Shown here: positions 4,667-53,413 of the stretch, in pieces
Layout of the letters: every line of letters begins with the position of its first letter
Position numbering within the stretch: position 1 is the stretch's first letter
NCBI GenBank assembly: GCA_021801565.1
Contig: JAJYXV010000003.1
Location: forward strand, 293-64,292
DNA length: 64,000 nucleotides
Source: a bacterium
GTDB lineage: Bacteria > Patescibacteriota > Minisyncoccia > UBA6257 > GWB1-50-10
Reading direction: 5' to 3'
Program-made: the position numbers and the translations under genes
Notes under the pieces: generated by a model
What the model was told of the DNA's origin: nothing
Databases searched by the model: none
The model's input: only the letters and a program-made list of their open reading frames with translations

Positions 4667-7600
4667 ATGAAAAAGATCATCTTTGATGAAAAGGAATTAA
4701 TTCAAATATATGAGGGATCTCCTTCATATTTTGAGTTGATGAAAAAACTTTCTGCGCTTTACGAAAAACAAAAGAAGGCAAAAGAAATTCCAGAGCGTTT
4801 AGTAGAAAGAAAGTTTATTAATTCTGCAAAATCATTGGCAAAAAGACTTAAATTGGTGAAAGAACACCATCATGCCAAATACTCTTTCCGTTTATGGGAT
4901 GAAAATCGTCTTGCAGAGTTTACTCATGCGGTACGAAAAACAATCCGTGAGAGGAAAAAATATGACGTATTGCTCAAGGATTTTCCAGAGCTGGGAAGTA
5001 CAAATATTGTGTACTTTACGATTCAATCGGCAATCCCTGGCGGTATTAAAGGGATTCGCGATGCAATCGCTATGGTCGGGAGCGTCGAGCTTGATACGCT
5101 TCGTGACGCATTGAATGATGCCGAAAGAGGAGTTTTGGATTGTATGAATGAGCTCTACAAAACAAAACGTATGTTACGTGTCGGAGATGTTGCTGAAGTA
5201 ATCAAAAGCAGCAAAGATAGCATTCGTGGTATTATGGTAAAACTTGCTGCGCAGGGTTTCTTTGTGAATATTCCTGGCGAGCATCACTTGTTTTTCAACA
5301 ATTCTCCAAACTTCTACACCCCAAAGGAATTAATGAAGCTTATCTCGACCGAAGAGCAAAATAGGATTGCAAATGTTCTTCATATGGGTCCTATTACCAC
5401 GCGTCGTCTCGCACAACAGCTGTATGGTCAGGAAAAAGTAAGTAATGCATTTCTTTCTACGTATCTTACTAACCTTACCGAACGCGGATTATTGGAAATT
5501 GATCGAGACACCAGTGAATATTTATTGACTAAAAAGGGAAGTGAATTTGGTATTGATGCTACATCAATTCAAGCTCTTGATATCACCATACTTGAAAACA
5601 AATTTCTTATAAGAGACGAAGAACGTTCAAAGCCGTTTAAGAGTCTTTCAGAAGTAAGAAATGCGGTCATTCAAGACAATGAGGATAAGGAGATAAGGTT
5701 GATTGATATATCAAATCATCTTTCTAAGGATAGCTTCAAATTTCTCACTATCTCAGAAATTCTTTTTGGGAATCAAAATACCGATGTAGCCCTTTTGGAA
5801 AAGATCCTTCTCAAATCGGAACCTGATTTTGCGATTGTAAGCGGTCTTGTTCAAGGCACATTCACAGCGCGAAATGTAAAGCGTCAAAATGAGCTTGTTC
5901 AACCTCGAAAATTATATAAGATTGGATCTCAAATAAGCGCCGCATCGCAATTTCTTAATAAACTTGATGAGCGAACAAAAGGTCCGGTTTGTATTGCGCT
6001 TGGTGATGATGATCTTCGTATTGCTGAAGATTATGCAGATATTGCGCAATTGAATGAGGGAAAAACTTGGACATTTGGCGTGAATTACACAAGTCTTACT
6101 GCAGAATTGCAACGAAGGATTAATATTCGCGAATATCACACAAAACGGAAGATTCAGTTTGAAATAATTTTACCGTATCAATATCGAGTACGTCGCGCAT
6201 TAAAAAATGCGAAAGAAGTGTGGAAGGAAATCGGAGTTAAAAAGTCCGAATACCGTCTTATCATGGAAATTCTCATTTTGAATCGCGCAAAACAACCGTA
6301 TCCTGAAATTTATGAAAAAGTTGTTGATGTCAATGCGTTACTTGGTGGTTTAAAACATGGAATTGTTACACCCGATTCTCTGATTTTAAAAGTTGGCGAT
6401 CGTACTATACAGTTTGTGCATAACACGAATTTTAGTGATGTAACACAATATGTAGATCCGCTTTTTACCTCAGAGAAAATTATGCGACATTTCATGTCTC
6501 GTGATTATCAGAAACTACCATGGATGTTGCTTGATGGACATCAAGAGATGTTTTATGGAACATATTTCCAGAATCACTGGGTTATGTGTCTTCCTGGAAT
6601 GCAGAATTCACTTGATATGGCAATGCACCGCAAAAAAACCCTCGTGACACGAGTTCTTCAATCAAAGTCCTTAAGGCAAAATACATTCCGAAAAGATCCA
6701 TCAACACCAGGGGCTGTTGAAATTGAAGTTTGTACTGAAGGTGGAATTGAAAACGATGGAAGAATCCGTCTTAGATTCTTTAATGATAAGATTATGGATT
6801 TACTTGATCGGGAGAAGGGCAAAAAGCACAAACAAACTGTTATTGGAGTTCTCACTGATCTTCAGTTTGGCTCTCCAACAATGCAGCCCGAACTTGTAAT
6901 AAAATATCTTGATTATTTACTCTACACTCGTGGTGCAAGATTGTTACGCGGAAATGGTGATTGGCTTCAGGGGTTTATCTATCCAGGATTTCCAGCAGAA
7001 TCAAGAACATTGCGGATGGTATCGGTTGATGCTCAACAACGCTTTACAAATGAGTTGTTAGTTCCGCTAATTACCGATGCTCCACACCTGGAAGATGTTG
7101 CTTTCTGGCAGGGGAATCATGAATGGGGTATCTGGAGTAATGCACTAACTGGTCAAAATGCGTTGTATTTTATGGAGGCCGCACTTCAAAGATTTATTGA
7201 TGGAATGAGAAAGGCGGGAAAAAATCCAAAACTCAAAACTGCAAGTACGGTAAGTAGAATTATTATGGCTCGTACCACGAATCCGATGGGTGATAGAATT
7301 CTTTTTCCGTATTTTGCTGAGACGGTAGATGAGTGGTTCAAAATTGCGTACACGCACCAGTGGCTTCCATATGGAGGCGGACGAACACCCGTTGATCAAC
7401 CACGTCGCTGGGTAAGCAACATGGCAAATGCTGCGGGAGATATAAATGTGTTGATTGGTGGAGACAAGCATTCGCTGTGGTTGAATCAGGAAGCGGGAAA
7501 GATTCTTATTCAATTGCCTGCTGCCGCAACTCAAAGTGGATATGAACTTGCTCGAGGACTTATGTCTACTGTAATGTTCGCGCTTCTCGTTGTGGATAAT

Positions 7601-9760: not shown

Positions 9761-9900
9761 CCCGTTAGAAACCCTGCTTACCGGCAGGCAGGCGCAATCG
9801 ATATATATAAAATAAAAAACAACTATGAGATATATAACAAAACAATTAGTCGCAATAAAGCCTATTATGGGTTGCTTGATCGCGATCTGTTTCTAATGGG
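9761..9900 (+). repeat. Intergenic palindromic element, CCCGTTAGAAAC...GATCGCGATCTGTTTCTAATGGG family
   Basis: Left end CCCGTTAGAAAC plus a CCTGCTTACCGGCAGGCAGG hairpin. AT-rich core with ATATATAAAATA. Right end abuts ATG 9901. Confidence 0.6.
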
Positions 9901-11212: not shown

Positions 11213-11662
11213 TTGGTACATCAAACGATAGCTCCGATGTAACATCGGAGAGGAAAGTCCGGACACTCAACCCCGAATTTATTGAGGGGTACGTGTAGTG
11301 GGTAACACCCATCGAGGGAAACCTTAGAGGTGCGAGCAGTGACGCTCCAGCGCGCAAGAGTTGGAGAGACCCAATCCTAAGCTAGAAGGTCTAACTTCGC
11401 TATAGGGATAAAAAAGCGGAGGTGAAACGGCTAAATCCTTACATGAGTGCAAGATCGTGCTATCTTGTGCGGAGCACAAGTAACTGACAACAAACGACTA
11501 ACGACCAACAACGAAGATTTTTTCTATGTATTGTATGTTGTGGGTTGTAAGTTGTAAGTTACTCGCGCTCTGCGCGAGGTGGAGAATCGCTTGAGTCCGA
11601 GAGTAATCAAGGACCTAGATAAATTATCGTATAAACAGAATCCGGCTTATGATGTACCCAAT
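11213..11662 (+). ncRNA. rnpB: RNase P RNA (bacterial type A-like) with an ~85-nt inserted hairpin
   Basis: P4 strands GAGAGGAAAGTCCGGAC (11248-11264) and ACAGAATCCGGCTTAT (11634-11650). P1 GGTACATC / GATGTACC. P3 hairpin CTCCGATG-TAAC-CATCGGAG. Confidence 0.8.
11480..11563 (+). repeat. ACAAC-rich / GTTGT-rich hairpin element (copy A), inside rnpB
   Basis: GTAACTGACAACAAACGACTAACGACCAACAAC ... GTTGTGGGTTGTAAGTTGTAAGTTAC. The arms are complementary. Confidence 0.5.
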
Positions 11663-11880
11663 CCCGCCACTTTTTAAGCGGCGGGATTGACCCCGTGAGT
11701 AGAAACTCGATAAGCCACTTCGTGGCTGTATTTGTAGGCATTTCATTCTTTATGCATTGTATGCATTAACTAGATAAAATTCAGAAAATCCATCTTTTCA
11801 CAATCGAGTTTTCCTGCCTACCGCAGGCAGGCACTACGGGGTTGACTTTTCCCGCTGTTTTGTTAAAAATGTATCTGTTA

Positions 11881-36480: not shown

Positions 36481-37146
36481 ATGGGGAATTTTGGAAAGAT
36501 TTTAATTGGAGTTGCGATTATTGGGTTGCTTATCTATGGAGCATATTATGCATATACAAATTGGTGGGGGAATGGAAATGCCGATAGTGCGGTAGGAAAA
36601 GTAAAGGGTATTGCGGTTGAAGCGGTGCAGAGCACAAAAGAAAAAATATCGGAAGCACAAACAACGACAGGAGAAAAAATTGGGACATTTATAAAGGAAA
36701 AAACCGGATCGGTAATTTCCTCTATTGGAAACTCAATTTCAAGTTTTGGGGATTCTATAGTTGGCGAAAAGGTAACTACTAATCAAAATACTTCTGGAGG
36801 AAATTCAAGTATTAATTCTTCTCCACAGACAGTCGTACTATCAGGTGGTGTGAATAGTACCACCACGGAAGCTGCAACAGGATCAAATTTTGTTTTACCA
36901 CCTCCCTTTACTGCAATTATTACAAAAATAAATACACCGCTTGCGTTTTCAATAAATAGAGAGGTAAATTATTCGATTGATTGGGCAGATGGAACTACAG
37001 AAAAAGGAAAAGTTTTGGCCGGAGAAAGTATGTTAGTTTCACATGAGTGGAAAAAACAGGGGGATTATACTATTGTGTTCACTATTGTTGACTCTACAGA
37101 AAGTCACACCTATTCATTTCCTATAAGGGTATATGAGTCCCGTTAG
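36481..37146 (+). CDS. Hypothetical membrane-anchored, Ser/Thr/Gly-rich protein
   Basis: N-terminal TM, low-complexity middle. Its stop codon TAG lies inside the left terminus of the next palindromic element. Confidence 0.35.
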   Translation: MGNFGKILIGVAIIGLLIYGAYYAYTNWWGNGNADSAVGKVKGIAVEAVQSTKEKISEAQTTTGEKIGTFIKEKTGSVISSIGNSISSFGDSIVGEKVTTNQNTSGGNSSINSSPQTVVLSGGVNSTTTEAATGSNFVLPPPFTAIITKINTPLAFSINREVNYSIDWADGTTEKGKVLAGESMLVSHEWKKQGDYTIVFTIVDSTESHTYSFPIRVYESR

Positions 37147-37257
37147 AAACAGCGATCGCGCGCATAAACTATAAATTTTAGAGATATATATACTATGGTC
37201 GGATATATAAAATATACGTACACTTCGCATTTTTGATCGCGATCTGTTTCTAACGGG
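37139..37257 (+). repeat. Intergenic palindromic element, subfamily 1 (canonical copy)
   Basis: CCCGTTAGAAACAGCGATCGCG ... GATCGCGATCTGTTTCTAACGGG with an AT-rich core (GGATATATAAAATATAC). Right end abuts ATG 37258. Confidence 0.6.
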
Positions 37258-38073
37258 ATGAATAAATTTAAAAAAACTGAAATTCTTTCTGCACAACGCT
37301 CGCATAAACCGAGAAAAAAAATTCGCGTTTGGGGAATTGCGCTTATTATATTTTTTGTTGTTGGAATTCTTATCGGATTGTCTTATCTTATTTTGAATAT
37401 GCAGATGCTTAAGGTACAGAGTATAAAAGTATCGGGAGTCCGCCTTACAAATCAGAATACTATCATTTCTTCTTTTTTTGCAGAGTCGGTAAAGCAAAAA
37501 GCGTGGTTGGTGCTCCTTGGTCCCGATAACCTTCTTTTTTGGAAATTTGCCCCAGAAGAAATTTCTCCTCTGTATGTTTCTACAGTGCAAGATATAAAAA
37601 AAGACGTTAGTTTTGGAGAGAAGAAAGTTCTTTTGGATGTAACAGAACGTTCAGTGGTGAACGTACTTTGTGAATATAATGGAGGAAAGTGTTATGGAAT
37701 GGATGAAAACGGGTTTGTTTTTTCTTCTGTACCGGAAGTGCATGGTGCACTTATTTTGCGGTTTGAGGCGGGTCCAGGAGAGAAAATAATGGTGGGGAAA
37801 CAATACCTTGATTCCCCCGAGTGGACGAAAAATATTATGGAAACAATTTCGATTATGGAATCTGAAGGGTTTACTCCTAAATTAATAAAGGTAAAAGGGG
37901 TTGGACTCGAAGAGTGGGAAGCGGTAATGCCTGAAGGATTTTCTTTTTATTTTAGCCTTCACTTTATTCCTGAAAATTTCCGTTCAATCTTAAACGATAT
38001 TTCTTCAAAGACTCGTCTCGATACGCTCCAATATTTCGATTTTCGAGTGCAGAACAGAGTGTATTATAAATGA
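37258..38073 (+). CDS. ftsQ: FtsQ/DivIB-like cell-division protein (POTRA)
   Basis: Basic N-terminus, single TM, POTRA-like region (LKVQSIKVSGVRLTNQNTI). Confidence 0.45.
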   Translation: MNKFKKTEILSAQRSHKPRKKIRVWGIALIIFFVVGILIGLSYLILNMQMLKVQSIKVSGVRLTNQNTIISSFFAESVKQKAWLVLLGPDNLLFWKFAPEEISPLYVSTVQDIKKDVSFGEKKVLLDVTERSVVNVLCEYNGGKCYGMDENGFVFSSVPEVHGALILRFEAGPGEKIMVGKQYLDSPEWTKNIMETISIMESEGFTPKLIKVKGVGLEEWEAVMPEGFSFYFSLHFIPENFRSILNDISSKTRLDTLQYFDFRVQNRVYYK

Positions 38074-46722: not shown

Positions 46723-46887
46723 CCCCGTTAGATACATATGTATTTTGTCTATGTGTTGAAAAGTAGGAAAGATTCAAATTTTTATGTTGGAAAGACTAAA
46801 AATTTGAAAGAGTGTCTTGAAAACATAAAGGGGGAAGAGATGTCTAAAGAACAGGCTTAAGTATGATCTTTATGGTATCTAATAGGG
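46723..46887 (+). repeat. Degenerate palindromic element (CCCCGTTAGATAC ... GTATCTAATAGGG)
   Basis: Inverted termini, 11 of 13 matching, about 165 bp apart in the long rplJ leader. Confidence 0.3.
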
Positions 46888-46932
46888 TACTGAATTTTGT
46901 GTTTATTCGCGAAGCTTATAAACAAAATTCGT

Positions 46933-47430
46933 ATGAAAACAAAAGCACAAAAGATAAAAAAAGTTGAGGAAGGAGGAAAAATCGTTGATGAAAAAAATAC
47001 GTTGATCTTTGCCGATTTTACTGGAACAAAAGTGAATGATATGAATTCACTCAGAAAAAGTCTTTATGCACTTGAATCAAAATTTGAAGTATTCAAAAAG
47101 CGTTTGTTCCGTGTGGTTTTACAACAAAAGGGATTTGAATTTAATCCAGAAACACTTGTGGGTCAACTTGGTGTTATTCACACCAATAAGAGATTAGATG
47201 AAATTGCGGGACCAGTGTACAAGTTTGCAAAACAATTCAAGACATTCAAAATTCTCGGAAGTGTTGATTTGAAGAGTAAGATATTTGTTTCAGGAACGGA
47301 GGTTGAAGCAATTGGACAATTACCTTCACGTGAAGTACTTATTGCGCAAGTGGTGGGTACAATCGCAGCGCCAATGAGTGCCTTTCTCTATGTGTTAAGT
47401 GAGAGATCAAAACAATTACAGTCGAAATAA
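46933..47430 (+). CDS. rplJ: 50S ribosomal protein L10
   Basis: MKTKAQKIKKVEEGGKIVDEKNTLIFADFTGTKVNDMNSLRK. The ORF track gives a longer N-terminus starting at 46897. Confidence 0.8.
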   Translation: MKTKAQKIKKVEEGGKIVDEKNTLIFADFTGTKVNDMNSLRKSLYALESKFEVFKKRLFRVVLQQKGFEFNPETLVGQLGVIHTNKRLDEIAGPVYKFAKQFKTFKILGSVDLKSKIFVSGTEVEAIGQLPSREVLIAQVVGTIAAPMSAFLYVLSERSKQLQSK

Positions 47431-47435
47431 AAATA

Positions 47436-47507
47436 ACTAACAACAAACAACAAACGACCAACAACAGGATATAAAAAGTTGTATGTTGTAAGTCGTAGGT
47501 TGTGGGT
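47436..47507 (+). repeat. ACAAC-rich / GTTGT-rich hairpin element (copy B), between rplJ and rplL
   Basis: AACTAACAACAAACAACAAACGACCAACAACAGG ... GTTGTATGTTGTAAGTCGTAGGTTGTGGGT. Confidence 0.5.
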
Positions 47508-47515
47508 AAAATATT

Positions 47516-47881
47516 ATGGAAAAATTTAATGATATCATTGAGAAAATCGAGAAAATGACCGTTGTAGAACTTGCGGAGCTCGTAAAAGTTCTCGAAGAAA
47601 AGTTTGGAGTAACCGCATCAATGCCATCAACTGGAGGAGCGGGAGTGGCAGGAGCGGAAGTTGTTGAGAAAACGGAATTTAACGTAGTCCTAAAAGTGGC
47701 GGGTGATCAGAAAATCAATGTGATCAAGGCCATCAGAGAAGCAACCGGATTGGGACTGAAAGAAGCAAAGGATATTGCTGATGCAGCTCCAAAGACGGTG
47801 AAAGAAGGAATGAAGAAGGAAGATGCGGAAGAGTTGAAGAAGAAACTCGAAGCAGCAGGTGCAACAGTGGCGTTAGAATAA
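47516..47881 (+). CDS. rplL: 50S ribosomal protein L7/L12
   Basis: [15 protein letters not shown]...[30 protein letters not shown]. Confidence 0.9.
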
Positions 47882-49970: not shown

Positions 49971-50402
49971 ATGCTTCTTGGTGAATATAAACATACAATA
50001 GATCCAAAAGGAAGAGTTGCTATTCCTGCGAAGTTTCGAGAGAAATTTACTGCAGGTGCAATCGTTACTCGCGGTTTGGATCACTGTCTTTTTGTGTTTA
50101 GTAAATCCGAGTGGGAGATACTGGCACAGAAAATTATTTCACTTCCGCTTGCACAAGCCGACTCCCGTGCGTTTGCTCGTCTTATGCTTTCGGGCGCAAC
50201 CGATGTTGAGCTTGATGTGCAGGGAAGAATTTTGATTCCGGACTCACTTCGAAATTATGCGCAGATGAAGAAGCAGGTGGTGGTGACCGGAATGTATACA
50301 CGCGTTGAATTGTGGGATACGGATGCATGGGAAGCGTACAAGAAAAAAACCGAAAGTGCAGCAGATGAAATTGCCGAGAAATTGAGTGAGTTGGGAATCT
50401 AA
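49971..50402 (+). CDS. mraZ: Transcriptional regulator MraZ
   Basis: MLLGEYKHTIDPKGRVAIPAKFR and a second DxxGR repeat (ELDVQGRILIP). Confidence 0.8.
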   Translation: MLLGEYKHTIDPKGRVAIPAKFREKFTAGAIVTRGLDHCLFVFSKSEWEILAQKIISLPLAQADSRAFARLMLSGATDVELDVQGRILIPDSLRNYAQMKKQVVVTGMYTRVELWDTDAWEAYKKKTESAADEIAEKLSELGI

Positions 50403-50405
50403 TTT

Positions 50406-50499
50406 ACCAACAACAAACAACATACAACTAACAACATGAAAAACACAGAGATATATAAAAGTCCGCCAGTCGTTCGTTGTTGGTTGTGGGTTGTATGTT
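50406..50499 (+). repeat. ACAAC-rich / GTTGT-rich hairpin element (copy C), overlapping the rsmH start
   Basis: ACCAACAACAAACAACATACAACTAACAACATG ... CAGTCGTTCGTTGTTGGTTGTGGGTTGTATGTT. The right arm contains the rsmH ATG (50495). Confidence 0.5.
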
Positions 50500-51376
50500 A
50501 ATACATGAGCCAGTTCTTTTAAATGAAGTAATACAAGTTCTTAATCCAAAGTCTGGAGAATTTTTTATCGATGGTACGGTGGGAGGAGGGGGACATGCTG
50601 CGGCGATTGAAAAATATTTGGGGTCAGATGGAAGAATTCTTGCGGTTGATGTTGATGATGAAGCAGTAGAACGTACGACCGCGGAATTTAAAATTTCGAA
50701 TTTAAAATTTAAAATTTTCCATGCGAACTATACTGAAATCCCGGAGATACTAAAAAAAGAAAAATTGCCGAAGGCAGATGGATTAATTCTTGATTTTGGA
50801 TTTTCTTCTTTCCAAATTGACGATTCAAAAAGAGGATTCAGTTTTCTTCACGCCGCACCACTTGATATGCGATATGATATTCATTCAAAAAATGTTTCTG
50901 CAGAAGATGTGGTAAATGGAGTAAGCGAAAAAGATCTTGCTCTTATCTTTTGGAAATATGGAGAGGAGCGATGGAGTAGGGTGATTGCAAAGAAAATTAT
51001 TAATGAACGAAAAAAGAAAAGGATAAAGACAACTATTGAATTGGCACATATTGTAGAAAAAGCGATTTCACGAAAAGGACGCACCCACCCAGCGACAAAA
51101 ATCTTTCAAGCGCTCCGCATTTATGTAAACAAAGAACTTGAAAACGTAGAGACAATCATGAGGGAGATTTCGGATATTGTCGGCAACAATGGACGGGTCG
51201 CTGTGATTTCGTTCCATTCATTGGAAGATAGAATTGTGAAGAATGCATTTCGGGATCTTGTGAAGTCAAAAAAAGCAATATTTATAAACAAAAAACCAAT
51301 TATTCCCACTCGGACGGAAATTTTAAAAAATCCACGAAGCCGTTCCGCAAAACTCAGGGCAATACAAATTATTTAA
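50495..51376 (+). CDS. rsmH: 16S rRNA m4C1402 methyltransferase RsmH (MraW)
   Basis: MLIHEPVLLNEVIQVL...FIDGTVGGGGHA. The ORF track starts at the TTG at 50477. Confidence 0.8.
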   Translation: MLIHEPVLLNEVIQVLNPKSGEFFIDGTVGGGGHAAAIEKYLGSDGRILAVDVDDEAVERTTAEFKISNLKFKIFHANYTEIPEILKKEKLPKADGLILDFGFSSFQIDDSKRGFSFLHAAPLDMRYDIHSKNVSAEDVVNGVSEKDLALIFWKYGEERWSRVIAKKIINERKKKRIKTTIELAHIVEKAISRKGRTHPATKIFQALRIYVNKELENVETIMREISDIVGNNGRVAVISFHSLEDRIVKNAFRDLVKSKKAIFINKKPIIPTRTEILKNPRSRSAKLRAIQII

Positions 51377-51676: not shown

Positions 51677-53283
51677 AAAATTTTCGATTCTACGCACTCT
51701 TTTTTATTTTTGTCATATTATATAGCGCACTTGGCGCCAATCTTTACAAACTGCAGATCAGTAAGGGTGCAGAATTTTCGGCAAAAGCAGATGTAGTAAA
51801 AGAGATAGAAAAAGAACTTACTTTGCGTCGTGGTCAAATATTTTTTACAGATAAATTTGATACGAGTATTCCTATTGCTCTTAATAAAGATGAACCTATT
51901 ATTTTTATTGCACCAAATGAAATAAAAAGTCCGAAAAAGACAAGTGAGGAACTCAGCAAAATTTTCGGAATAGATGCTTTGAAGTTAGAAGAAGTGATTA
52001 ATTCAAATCCAGAGAGCTATTTTTTTCCGTTAGTTGATAGAGCGACTGAAGAGCAGGTAAACTTTGTAAGCGAAAAAAAACTTGAGGGTGTGCATGTAGA
52101 ACAAAAACAGTATCGTTCGTATCCATACGATAACCTTGCATCGCAAGTGATTGGATATGTTGGAAAGAATGATAAGAATCCAGAACCCACCGGGATTTAT
52201 GGTATTGAACGTTTTTATGATAAAGAACTTTCCGGTGGAGAAGATATTCATCTTACCATTGATAGAAATATACAATCGCATGCGGAACAGCTTCTCAATA
52301 GGTACATTGAAAAATTTAAGGCGACTGGGGGAACGATGATCGTGGAGAATCCAAAAACGGGAAAAATTATTGCACTTACTAGCAAACCAGATTTCAATCC
52401 AAATGAATATGGGAAATCAAATATAAAGAATTTTATAAATCCAGCGGTTCAGTATCAGTATGAACCTGGATCGGTATTTAAGCCGCTTACCATGTCGGCG
52501 GGGATTGATACGGGGGCGTTTACTCCTAATACAACGTTTGTCGATAAGGGATTTGTAACACTGAATGGGAGAACAATTCATAATGCGGAAAATAAAGTAT
52601 ATGGAAGGATCACTATGACGAGTGTGATTGAAAATTCTGTAAATACGGGAGCGGTATATGCAGAGCAACTTATTGGACATAAAAATTTTTATGAATATTT
52701 AAAGAAGTTCGGTTTTACAGAAAAAACAGGGATTAATTTACCAGAAGAAATTGCTGGAAATATACGGAATCTTGAACGAAAAGATGCGCGTGCCATTGAT
52801 TTCGCAACTGTTGCATTCGGACAGGGAGCTGCAGTAACACCGCTTCAGCTTGTGAATGCATTTTCGGTATTAGCAAATGGGGGATTGCTTATGAAGCCAT
52901 ATATTAATGAAGATGAAGCTCCGTATGTGGTACGGCGCGTGATAAGTGATGACACGGCGAAAAAAGTAACCTCAATGATTGAAACAACAGTTGAAAAAGC
53001 GAAAATAGCGGCAATTCCACAATATAGAGTTGCGGGAAAAACTGGGACAGCATACATTCCTGAAAATGGGAAGTATACAGAGGAAATGATTCATACATTT
53101 GTCGGATTTGCGCCAGTAAGCGATCCGCAGTTTGTCGTGTTAGTAAAACTTGATCGTCCACAGATCGGCGAGCTTGCGGGTCTCACTGTTGTTCCGGCTT
53201 TTCGTGAGTTATCCGAATTTATATTGAATTATTACAACATTCCTCCCGATAAGGTAAGCGCTGCACAGAATTCATCCCGTTAG
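51673..53283 (+). CDS. ftsI: Penicillin-binding protein (class B, FtsI-like transpeptidase)
   Basis: SVFKP (SxxK), SxN and KTGTA motifs. Its stop codon TAG lies inside the next palindromic element. Confidence 0.8.
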   Translation: MKNFRFYALFFIFVILYSALGANLYKLQISKGAEFSAKADVVKEIEKELTLRRGQIFFTDKFDTSIPIALNKDEPIIFIAPNEIKSPKKTSEELSKIFGIDALKLEEVINSNPESYFFPLVDRATEEQVNFVSEKKLEGVHVEQKQYRSYPYDNLASQVIGYVGKNDKNPEPTGIYGIERFYDKELSGGEDIHLTIDRNIQSHAEQLLNRYIEKFKATGGTMIVENPKTGKIIALTSKPDFNPNEYGKSNIKNFINPAVQYQYEPGSVFKPLTMSAGIDTGAFTPNTTFVDKGFVTLNGRTIHNAENKVYGRITMTSVIENSVNTGAVYAEQLIGHKNFYEYLKKFGFTEKTGINLPEEIAGNIRNLERKDARAIDFATVAFGQGAAVTPLQLVNAFSVLANGGLLMKPYINEDEAPYVVRRVISDDTAKKVTSMIETTVEKAKIAAIPQYRVAGKTGTAYIPENGKYTEEMIHTFVGFAPVSDPQFVVLVKLDRPQIGELAGLTVVPAFRELSEFILNYYNIPPDKVSAAQNSSR

Positions 53284-53413
53284 AAACCCTGCCCGCCGGT
53301 AGGCAGGTGCGATTGCGCCTAGAAGATATTAATTTAAAAAACATGCATACCATCGTCGAATATATAAAATATACACATATCGCACTCATCGATCGCGATC
53401 TGTTTCTAACTGG
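53276..53413 (+). repeat. Intergenic palindromic element, subfamily 1
   Basis: CCCGTTAGAAAC plus a CCTGCCCGCCGGTAGGCAGG hairpin ... GAATATATAAAATATAC ... GATCGCGATCTGTTTCTAACTGG. Abuts murF ATG 53414. Confidence 0.6.

Follow-up and report, generated by a model that had tools for sequence, protein, structure and literature searches.

The 64-kb stretch of contig JAJYXV010000003.1 analysed here (hereafter the window) belongs to a groundwater Patescibacteria (candidate phyla radiation, CPR) bacterium with a tiny and very compact genome. It carries three imperfect hairpins: copy 1 inside rnpB, which encodes RNase P RNA, copy 2 in the rplJ-rplL spacer, and copy 3 in the mraZ-rsmH spacer. We propose that each of the three hairpins consists of inverted arrays of a 7-nt tandem repeat, akin to heptameric simple sequence repeats (SSRs) and to STRR (short tandemly repeated repetitive) sequences, and that the rnpB copy is tolerated whereas the spacer copies are constrained. 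We give this reading about an even chance of being right.

Heptanucleotide arrays in the three hairpins

The unit of the hairpins has five fixed and two variable bases and reads ACAAC-NN in the 5′ arm but GTTGT-NN in the 3′ arm, and the predicted RNA fold is a chain of 5-bp helices with 2x2 internal loops between them. A first-pass annotation, made from the sequence alone, had reported the three hairpins as one related family. They are real at the positions given there, where their folds beat dinucleotide shuffles (z on the + strand of -4.85, -4.06, and -3.93 for copies 1, 2, and 3, respectively), and the common heptamer unit ACAAC-NN / GTTGT-NN unites them as a family. Tandem Repeats Finder detected period 7 in both arms of copies 2 and 3 and, for copy 1, in the 3′ arm, and a phased-unit scan found period-7 arrays on 6/6 arms. 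The relaxed two-unit motif AACNAACAACNAAC gave 29 matches in the window vs 8.9 +/- 3.2 expected, with multi-match clusters exclusively at the three hairpin sites. Neither the motif search nor the phased-unit scan revealed a fourth copy in the 64-kb window.

Beyond the 5-nt core, no single consensus was found among the hairpins. The 16-mer ACAAACGACCAACAAC, previously described as common to the copies, is exact in copy 2 only (47450-47465); two registers of copy 1 fit it with 1-2 mismatches, and copy 3 has no match within 2 mismatches. Between paralogous copies the loops are unrelated and overall similarity is low (scores 21-69 vs 101-107 for orthologs). The exception concerns the 5′ arms of copies 1 and 2, which agree at 24/26 positions and both contain the rare ACGAC-CA-ACAAC units. 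The 5′ array of copy 1 reads ACAAC AA ACGAC TA ACGAC CA ACAAC, and its ACGAC units pair with GUUGU via G-U. The loops of copies 2 and 3 have GATATA(TA)AAAAG in common. Because the reverse complement of such a hairpin also begins with an ACAAC arm, the A/C-rich arm coming first is no marker of orientation.

Table 1 Hairpins, host genes, and related features in the window.
Feature	Position	Strand	Details
rnpB, bacterial type A RNase P RNA	11213-11664	+	Rfam RF00010, model 1-367, full length
Lineage-specific P16/17 arm extension	11460-11582	+	Between anchors GTGCAAGATCGTG and GGAGAATCGCTTGAG; 10-30 nt there in relatives
Hairpin copy 1	11480-11563	+	Inside rnpB; 5′ array 11487-11512, loop ~11513-11529, 3′ array 11530-11562
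rplJ	46897-47430	+	Pfam Ribosomal_L10; upstream neighbour of copy 2
Hairpin copy 2	47431-47507	+	Fills rplJ-rplL spacer; 5′ array 47433-47465, loop 47466-47477 (AGGATATAAAAA), 3′ array 47478-47503
rplL	47516-47881	+	Pfam Ribosomal_L12_N and Ribosomal_L12; downstream neighbour of copy 2
mraZ	49971-50402	+	Pfam MraZ; upstream neighbour of copy 3
Hairpin copy 3	50405-50501	+	Fills mraZ-rsmH spacer; 5′ array 50410-50435, 40-nt loop 50436-50475, 3′ array 50469-50501
21-codon open reading frame in copy 3	50436-50501	+	MKNTEIYKSPPVVRCWLWVVC*; TAA stop overlaps rsmH ATG; significance uncertain
rsmH	50495-51376	+	Pfam Methyltransf_5; 293 aa; start from gene calls on identical contigs

Position and age of the rnpB copy

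With permissive filters, rnpB matched RF00010 at 96.3 bits (E=6.2e-30), below the gathering score of 100, and at the gathering threshold Rfam reported no RNase P RNA in the window. The shortfall is plausibly due to the insert of ~120 nt together with the reduced P12-P14 region. Default annotation misses this essential gene, plausibly because the insert pushes its score below the gathering score. Both P4 strands (GAGGAAAGUCCGG ... ACAGAAnCCGGCUUA), J5/15 CAAG, and P18 with its GUAA loop are present and aligned at high posterior probability, and the conserved core (P4 strands, GGU in the 3′ strand of L15, and P18) is intact. Strain L001 differs from the window by compensatory double changes (CTCCAGCG/AGTTGGAG vs CTCCGATG/GATCGGAG; TCGCT/AGCGG vs TCGTT/AACGA). 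Judged by such paired substitutions, the rnpB gene as a whole is under structural selection.

The boundaries of the Rfam alignment enclose copy 1, which lies between the two P4 strands as the first-pass annotation had it. The placement in P12 made there did not hold: the alignment puts the insertion after model position 245, in the P15-P16/17 arm (assigned by reference to the secondary structure of Escherichia coli M1 RNA), with J5/15 'CAAG' upstream and P18 'GCUUGAG' and the 3′ P4 strand downstream. P12 itself corresponds here to a short helix around 11345-11370. In L15, the loop in which the tRNA 3′-CCA is held, the 3′ strand keeps its GGU (GAG-GUGGA-GAAUC), and the extension therefore starts beyond the tRNA CCA-binding site. 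Folding of 11448-11600 gave one continuous rod over the whole arm extension (minimum free energy -62.1 kcal/mol, z -6.69). In this irregular rod of ~120 nt, a proximal helix of 16 bp that includes several G-U pairs is followed by one of 7 bp, and the heptamer hairpin forms the tip. A division of the region into three separate hairpins (A, B, and C) is less probable, as the predicted minimum free energy fold is a single continuous rod.

To date the insertion, the P4 strands were used to find rnpB near the adjoining RNase H gene of 20 relatives and in closer relatives obtained by exact protein look-up, and the insert region was aligned in 10 relatives between the conserved anchors GTGCAAGRYCGTG and GGAGARYCGCTTGAG. 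The anchors are 10-30 nt apart in eight relatives vs ~120 nt in the window and L207 only, so that in this alignment the ~100 extra nt are limited to these two. All relatives with the rnpB hairpin (L207, L208, and L001-L005) share at least 91% identity with the window in the neighbouring protein, and the hairpin is absent where this identity is 80% or less (L209, L211, L212, L009, and L015), with short stem-loops in its place. These results bear out the earlier suggestion of an insertion or expansion that a structural RNA tolerates; copy 1 is specific to its lineage, occurring in the closest one only (L207/L208). The L207 hairpin contains two uncompensated G>A changes that break pairs in the 3′ arm, and the changes of L207 and L001 in other rnpB helices are compensated. 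By this comparison the rnpB copy is recent (species-level) and looks weakly constrained.

Some further observations concern rnpB and its surroundings. The locus is also present in the metagenome-assembled genome (MAG) GCA_027423605.1 and in several further assemblies, and the top named relatives of the adjoining RNase H-like protein are from Jorgensenbacteria, Minisyncoccia, and Patescibacteria. The rnpB of L209, which has no insert, shows ACAA-AG-TTGT at the tip of the corresponding short P16/17 stem (TCCGCTAACATCTACAAAGTTGTGGCGGA); this tip may have seeded an ACAAC/GTTGT unit or be what is left of one. Large lineage-specific expansions occur elsewhere in the rnpB genes of other Patescibacteria, namely ~120 nt extra after P4/P5 in L211 (L211:4362-4761), AT-rich blocks of >100 nt before the 3′ P4 strand in L013 and L034, and an AT-rich insert in a P12-like region in L059.

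History of the spacer copies and the wider family

Copy 2 is identical in 5 other assemblies and copy 3 in 6, and the spacers are identical in all assemblies encoding identical RplL or MraZ. As the first-pass annotation stated, copy 2 ends shortly before rplL, the ATG at 47516 lying 9 nt past the last paired base, and the rsmH start (ATG 50495-50497) lies within the 3′ arm of copy 3, in its last unit, GTTGTATGTT. In L224-226, whose RsmH is 77-84% identical to that of the window, the rplJ-rplL spacer measures 13 nt and mraZ and rsmH overlap by 4 nt; in the outgroup L228 (RsmH 59% identical), the two spacers measure 7 nt and 1 nt, respectively. L227, from the same MAG as L209 (RsmH 68% identical), has an orthologous hairpin at both junctions. 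Since the outgroup and the closer relatives have short or overlapping junctions, the spacer hairpins are derived insertions into once tightly coupled junctions. The rsmH start of L228 reads T-ATG-TCG-ATA-CAC-AAG (MSIHKP), which shows that the insertion of copy 3 took place immediately next to the ancestral rsmH ATG.

Eight genes agree in placing L224-226 nearer to the window than L227 (pooled fourfold identity 0.55-0.57 vs 0.375). At 0.375, fourfold identity between the window and L227 is close to saturation, and between the same two genomes copy 2 is 88% and copy 3 83% identical, with ~85% identity in the non-repetitive 40-nt loop of copy 3. In a manual alignment count, substitutions between the window and L227 fell mostly on NN positions; the cores were almost unchanged and the loops intermediate. 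Copy 3 has 4+3 units in the window vs 3+2 in L227, one having been gained or lost per arm. A recent recombinational transfer between the two lineages was rejected: third-position identity over the 40 codons beside each hairpin (0.47-0.65) is the same as in the rest of the gene, and the immediate flanks of the window hairpins resemble L224, not L227. The substitution pattern fits old elements under constraint better than recent transfer. Taken at the level of sequence, the spacer copies are clearly older and constrained, far more conserved than neutral sites, and a role in cis is likely. They are non-coding inserts in a streamlined genome, and their degree of conservation roughly equals that of the ribosomal-protein genes beside them. 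In L224-226 the RsmH N-terminus is remodelled (MTDVKHIP), which would be consistent with secondary loss of the hairpin.

The loop and 3′ arm of copy 3 contain the 21-codon open reading frame (ORF) listed in Table 1, and L227 has a 15-codon ORF with the same start. Conservation of the peptide was rejected, as the differences between the window and L227 lie at codon positions 1 and 2 and are not synonymous; a function of this ORF as a translational relay is conceivable.

Further copies exist outside the window. A hairpin of the same ACAAC/GTTGT design fills the rpmJ-rpsM spacer of a Nealsonbacteria MAG (L020), and the two-arm pattern was found in at least 120 metagenome stretches, a lower bound obtained with one two-arm pattern without a phasing requirement. 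The following holds among the matches listed. Phased units occur on both arms of 37/81 analysed hairpins, and 17/26 classifiable ones lie between co-directional genes. The hairpins usually fill the spacer, starting 3-4 nt past the stop and ending 0-14 nt before the next start. Their neighbours are unrelated housekeeping genes, and a gene-specific association, for example with ribosomal operons, was rejected because the flanking genes are diverse. The G+C of the contigs carrying them ranges from 0.32 to 0.67. Across the family, the unit numbers of the two arms correlate (rho 0.53, p=8e-4). The broad occurrence of ACAAC is no proof of sequence specificity, because the core itself was the search pattern. 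An unbiased scan of the RNase H loci yielded period-7 inverted arrays with other units (TAGGGAT, TAGCGTT/TAGGGTA, AGAACTT, AATTTCT, and GGGAATC), which indicates that heptamer-array hairpins are a general class of which ACAAC is one type. These arrays lie at L008:6237-6269; L036:15577-15615; L048:5435-5468, 5962-5984, and 9854-9878; and L066:7538-7582.

L020 offers two side observations. Between infA and rpmJ, a second repeat-built hairpin (L020:14575-14640) consists of AGCTTCTT-type units (AGCTTCTTAGCTTCTTAG ... CCAAGAAGCTACAAGCTA). The hairpin just upstream of rpsM (L020:14768-14869) gave a weak sub-threshold match to RF00140, the Alpha-operon ribosome binding site (25.8 bits, E=0.05), which is probably driven by the hairpin alone.

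Nearly all genes of the window are on the same strand, with tight spacing and a G+C of ~37%. In 46/56 window gene starts, none of GGAG, GAGG, and AGGA occurs in the upstream 20 nt, which suggests that initiation in this genome is largely Shine-Dalgarno-independent. Many window genes start ATGAAAAA, with A/T-rich sequence upstream. The RNase H homologues of L224 and L226, the genomes nearest to the window in the rplJ-murE block, are apparently 67-70% identical to that of the window, and that of the more distant L209/L227 genome is 78-81% identical (P0082/P0122, P0068/P0128). A mosaic genome, suspected from these identities, was unsupported (fourfold identity 0.40 near rnpB vs 0.375 in the other block), and the discrepancy is probably rate variation or paralogy.

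The window also holds a second, unrelated repeat family of ~120-140 nt elements at 9761-9900, 37139-37257, and 53276-53413. The elements have terminal inverted repeats CCCGTTAGAAAC ... GTTTCTAACGGG, an inner palindrome GATCGCGATC, and an AT-rich centre, and two copies contain a CCTGC...GCAGG mini-hairpin. Each copy stops right at the ATG of the next gene (encoding a DHHA1 protein, the gene at 37258, and MurE), and the 20-mer GATCGCGATCTGTTTCTAAC occurs 3 times vs 0 expected. A partial copy may be present at 46724-46735, and an inverted, diverged one may directly follow rnpB, at ~11690-11850.

Competing explanations and known systems

In the reading that we prefer, heptamer arrays would arise at the DNA level by insertion followed by gain or loss of units, would land in the few non-coding positions of the compact Patescibacteria genome, and would then be transcribed within whichever RNA hosts them. 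Beyond L15, the rnpB copy has recently lengthened the P16/17 arm, and its predicted rod would point away from the catalytic core, be kept in the RNA, and be functionally neutral. The spacer copies were inserted into tightly coupled junctions, right at the downstream start codon, after which their cores and loops came under purifying selection; they may serve as an intercistronic RNA or DNA structure that sets the expression of rplL and rsmH.

Several results weigh against this reading. The sense strand had no folding advantage (14/23 hairpins fold better on the sense strand, p=0.64), and permuting the NN dinucleotides in one arm of 28 hairpins gave a mean z of ~0 (p=0.66), that is, no NN covariation between the arms. 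Because of these two results, RNA-level selection on pairing is not demonstrated. The first-pass annotation had named arms that do not co-vary among the observations that would refute it, and this partly applies; the only supportive cases are the ACGAC:GTCGT pairing of copy 2 and the parallel change in unit number on the two arms of copy 3. No unit-number polymorphism was seen among near-identical strains, unlike in an actively slipping SSR. The presence of the spacer copies in the window and L227 and their absence in the closer L224-226 need two clean losses or lateral movement. Moreover, the conservation of the spacer-copy loops is accounted for by no mechanism tested, and the loops of the paralogous copies are unrelated.

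Scans of the hairpins for known signals were negative. No terminator-like site lies on any of the three hairpins, none of which has a T run after it, and no sigma-70 promoter-like site coincides with them. Among Rfam cis-regulatory and small RNA families there was no match; only sub-threshold look-alikes of plant microRNA precursors appeared, in the window copy and at 11 loci with strong members.

The missing strand asymmetry and the missing NN covariation would also suit purely neutral or selfish DNA, with the hairpins as by-products of heptamer slippage and palindrome formation that are functionless everywhere, spacers included. Unrelated flanking genes, the absence of the spacer hairpins in the nearest relatives and the outgroup, and the uncompensated changes in the rnpB copy agree with this. 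Yet orthologs are 83-88% and non-repetitive loops ~85% identical where fourfold identity is 0.375, the third positions beside the hairpins show no transfer tract, and concerted evolution could keep the repeat cores constant but not the loops; we think this explanation unlikely. Control of downstream translation initiation by mRNA hairpins that sequester or position the start codon, for rsmH perhaps via a relay through the 21-codon ORF, seems rather improbable to us. It would draw on the position of the rsmH ATG, which the basal helix of copy 3 contains in the window as well as in L227, on the end of copy 2 9 nt before rplL, on the usual end of family members 0-14 nt before the next start (among the matches listed), and on the ORF start conserved in L227, in a genome so largely free of Shine-Dalgarno sequences (46/56 starts) that local structure should matter for initiation. 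However, any insert into a 1-13-nt spacer of a gene-dense genome must abut a start codon, and such a position is therefore no evidence of function. The hairpins show no sense-strand preference, the ORF differences are not biased to synonymous sites, and the explanation is inapplicable to the rnpB copy. The ancestral junctions were already tight (7/1 nt in the outgroup; 13 nt/4-nt overlap in the closer relatives), which weakens the first-pass proposal of the hairpins as a source of translational coupling and indicates that the inserts disrupted coupling rather than created it.

A non-autonomous mobile element, similar to MITEs (miniature transposable elements with inverted repeats) or REP sequences and moved by a transposase or a REP-associated tyrosine transposase (RAYT), would make the rnpB copy a recent transposition. 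This copy did arise in a genome already holding the other two, shares 24/26 positions of its 5′ arm, rare ACGAC-CA-ACAAC included, with copy 2, and belongs to a family with many metagenome copies (at least 120 stretches). MITE hallmarks were missing, however: the paralogs combine unrelated loops with low scores (21-69 vs 101-107 for orthologs), no target-site duplications are evident at the three junctions, nor are conserved termini, and there are no near-identical copies. No transposase was seen in the 64-kb window, in which no search aimed at transposases was made. We see little chance for such an element. Internal promoters in the loops (TATAAA-like -10 boxes) serving rplL and rsmH, with the arrays as DNA-level flanks, would account for loop conservation and the missing strand bias together. 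The loops of copies 2 and 3 share GATATA(TA)AAAAG, and in both copies ACAACA stands 17 nt upstream of TATAAA. Still, the sigma-70 scan gave no promoter-like site in either hairpin, the -35 match is 3/6, and the rnpB copy and L020 are without the loop motif; we regard this explanation as highly improbable.

A more far-reaching idea, which we regard as having only a slim chance, is that the hairpin is a conserved cis-element for a dedicated trans-acting factor, an RNA-binding protein or nuclease that recognises the 7-nt-periodic helix. If this were true, whole sets of hairpins would be gained and lost together, which would explain why both spacer copies are kept, at 83-88% identity, in two distant lineages and are missing in the lineage between them, and the rnpB copy would put the ribozyme under the same factor in its localisation, turnover, or assembly. 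CPR bacteria, and other phyla rich in the motif, would then possess a post-transcriptional system that has not yet been described.

Whichever explanation applies, Rfam has no entry for the ACAAC hairpin design, common as it is in metagenomes, and RNase P RNA may be undercalled in CPR genomes, several of whose rnpB genes have large expansions. Our literature searches turned up no relevant work on RNase P insertions or on palindromic repeats in CPR bacteria.

The arrays of the window have the marks of heptameric arrays known elsewhere, that is, period 7, location at non-coding sites and in a variable rnpB helix, and unit numbers that vary between related genomes. STRR sequences reportedly lie within the rnpB of heterocystous cyanobacteria (Vioque 1997, Nucleic Acids Res 25:3471, as cited in PMC2858038). 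Both systems consist of heptanucleotide tandem repeats in intergenic DNA and in a variable peripheral rnpB helix, where complementary arrays lengthen the helix and leave the core untouched. They differ in phylum, in the unit (ACAAC-NN, with 5/7 positions fixed, is no rotation or complement of the cyanobacterial units CCCCAGT, TTGGTCA, and CAACAGT), in the helix (P16/17 here vs P12 in cyanobacteria), and in number (~3 copies per 64 kb rather than hundreds). By this comparison, the window hairpins are an analogue, not members, of the cyanobacterial STRR families. The making of a ribozyme helix from a dispersed heptamer repeat, so far reported for heterocystous cyanobacteria, has an independent second case in Patescibacteria, where another helix is involved.

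Bacterial intergenic DNA shows an over-representation of heptameric SSRs, and inverted pairs that can fold into stem-loops are also found among the GGGAATC arrays of Xanthomonas (PMC4692102). The window hairpins resemble them in period 7, intergenic location, inversion, and variation of length and sequence between related species, and a GGGAATC inverted array was also found in L066. In contrast to the ACAAC hairpins, the Xanthomonas-type SSRs are G-rich and were studied as G-quadruplex formers, are not reported within structural RNA genes, and have no strongly conserved orthologous loops described for them. REP/BIME, ERIC, RPE, and Correia elements are short imperfect palindromes that are transcribed in operons, and some of them (the RPEs of Rickettsia) are tolerated inside genes. 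Like REP/BIME-type elements, the ACAAC hairpins are imperfect palindromes between co-directional genes and may affect mRNA stability or translation. Unlike them, they have no full-length consensus or GTAG-type head, are low in copy number, have no known RAYT partner (no RAYT search was made), and are internally repetitive with period 7 in their arms, as REP arms are not.

RNase P RNA itself has lineage-specific expansion segments; the helix table of PMC2858038 names P16.1, P19, and variable P12 and P3. The P16/17 arm extension of the window is like these in adding peripheral helix length while the core is preserved, and differs from them in that the helix is built from a dispersed repeat that also occupies mRNA spacers of the same genome.

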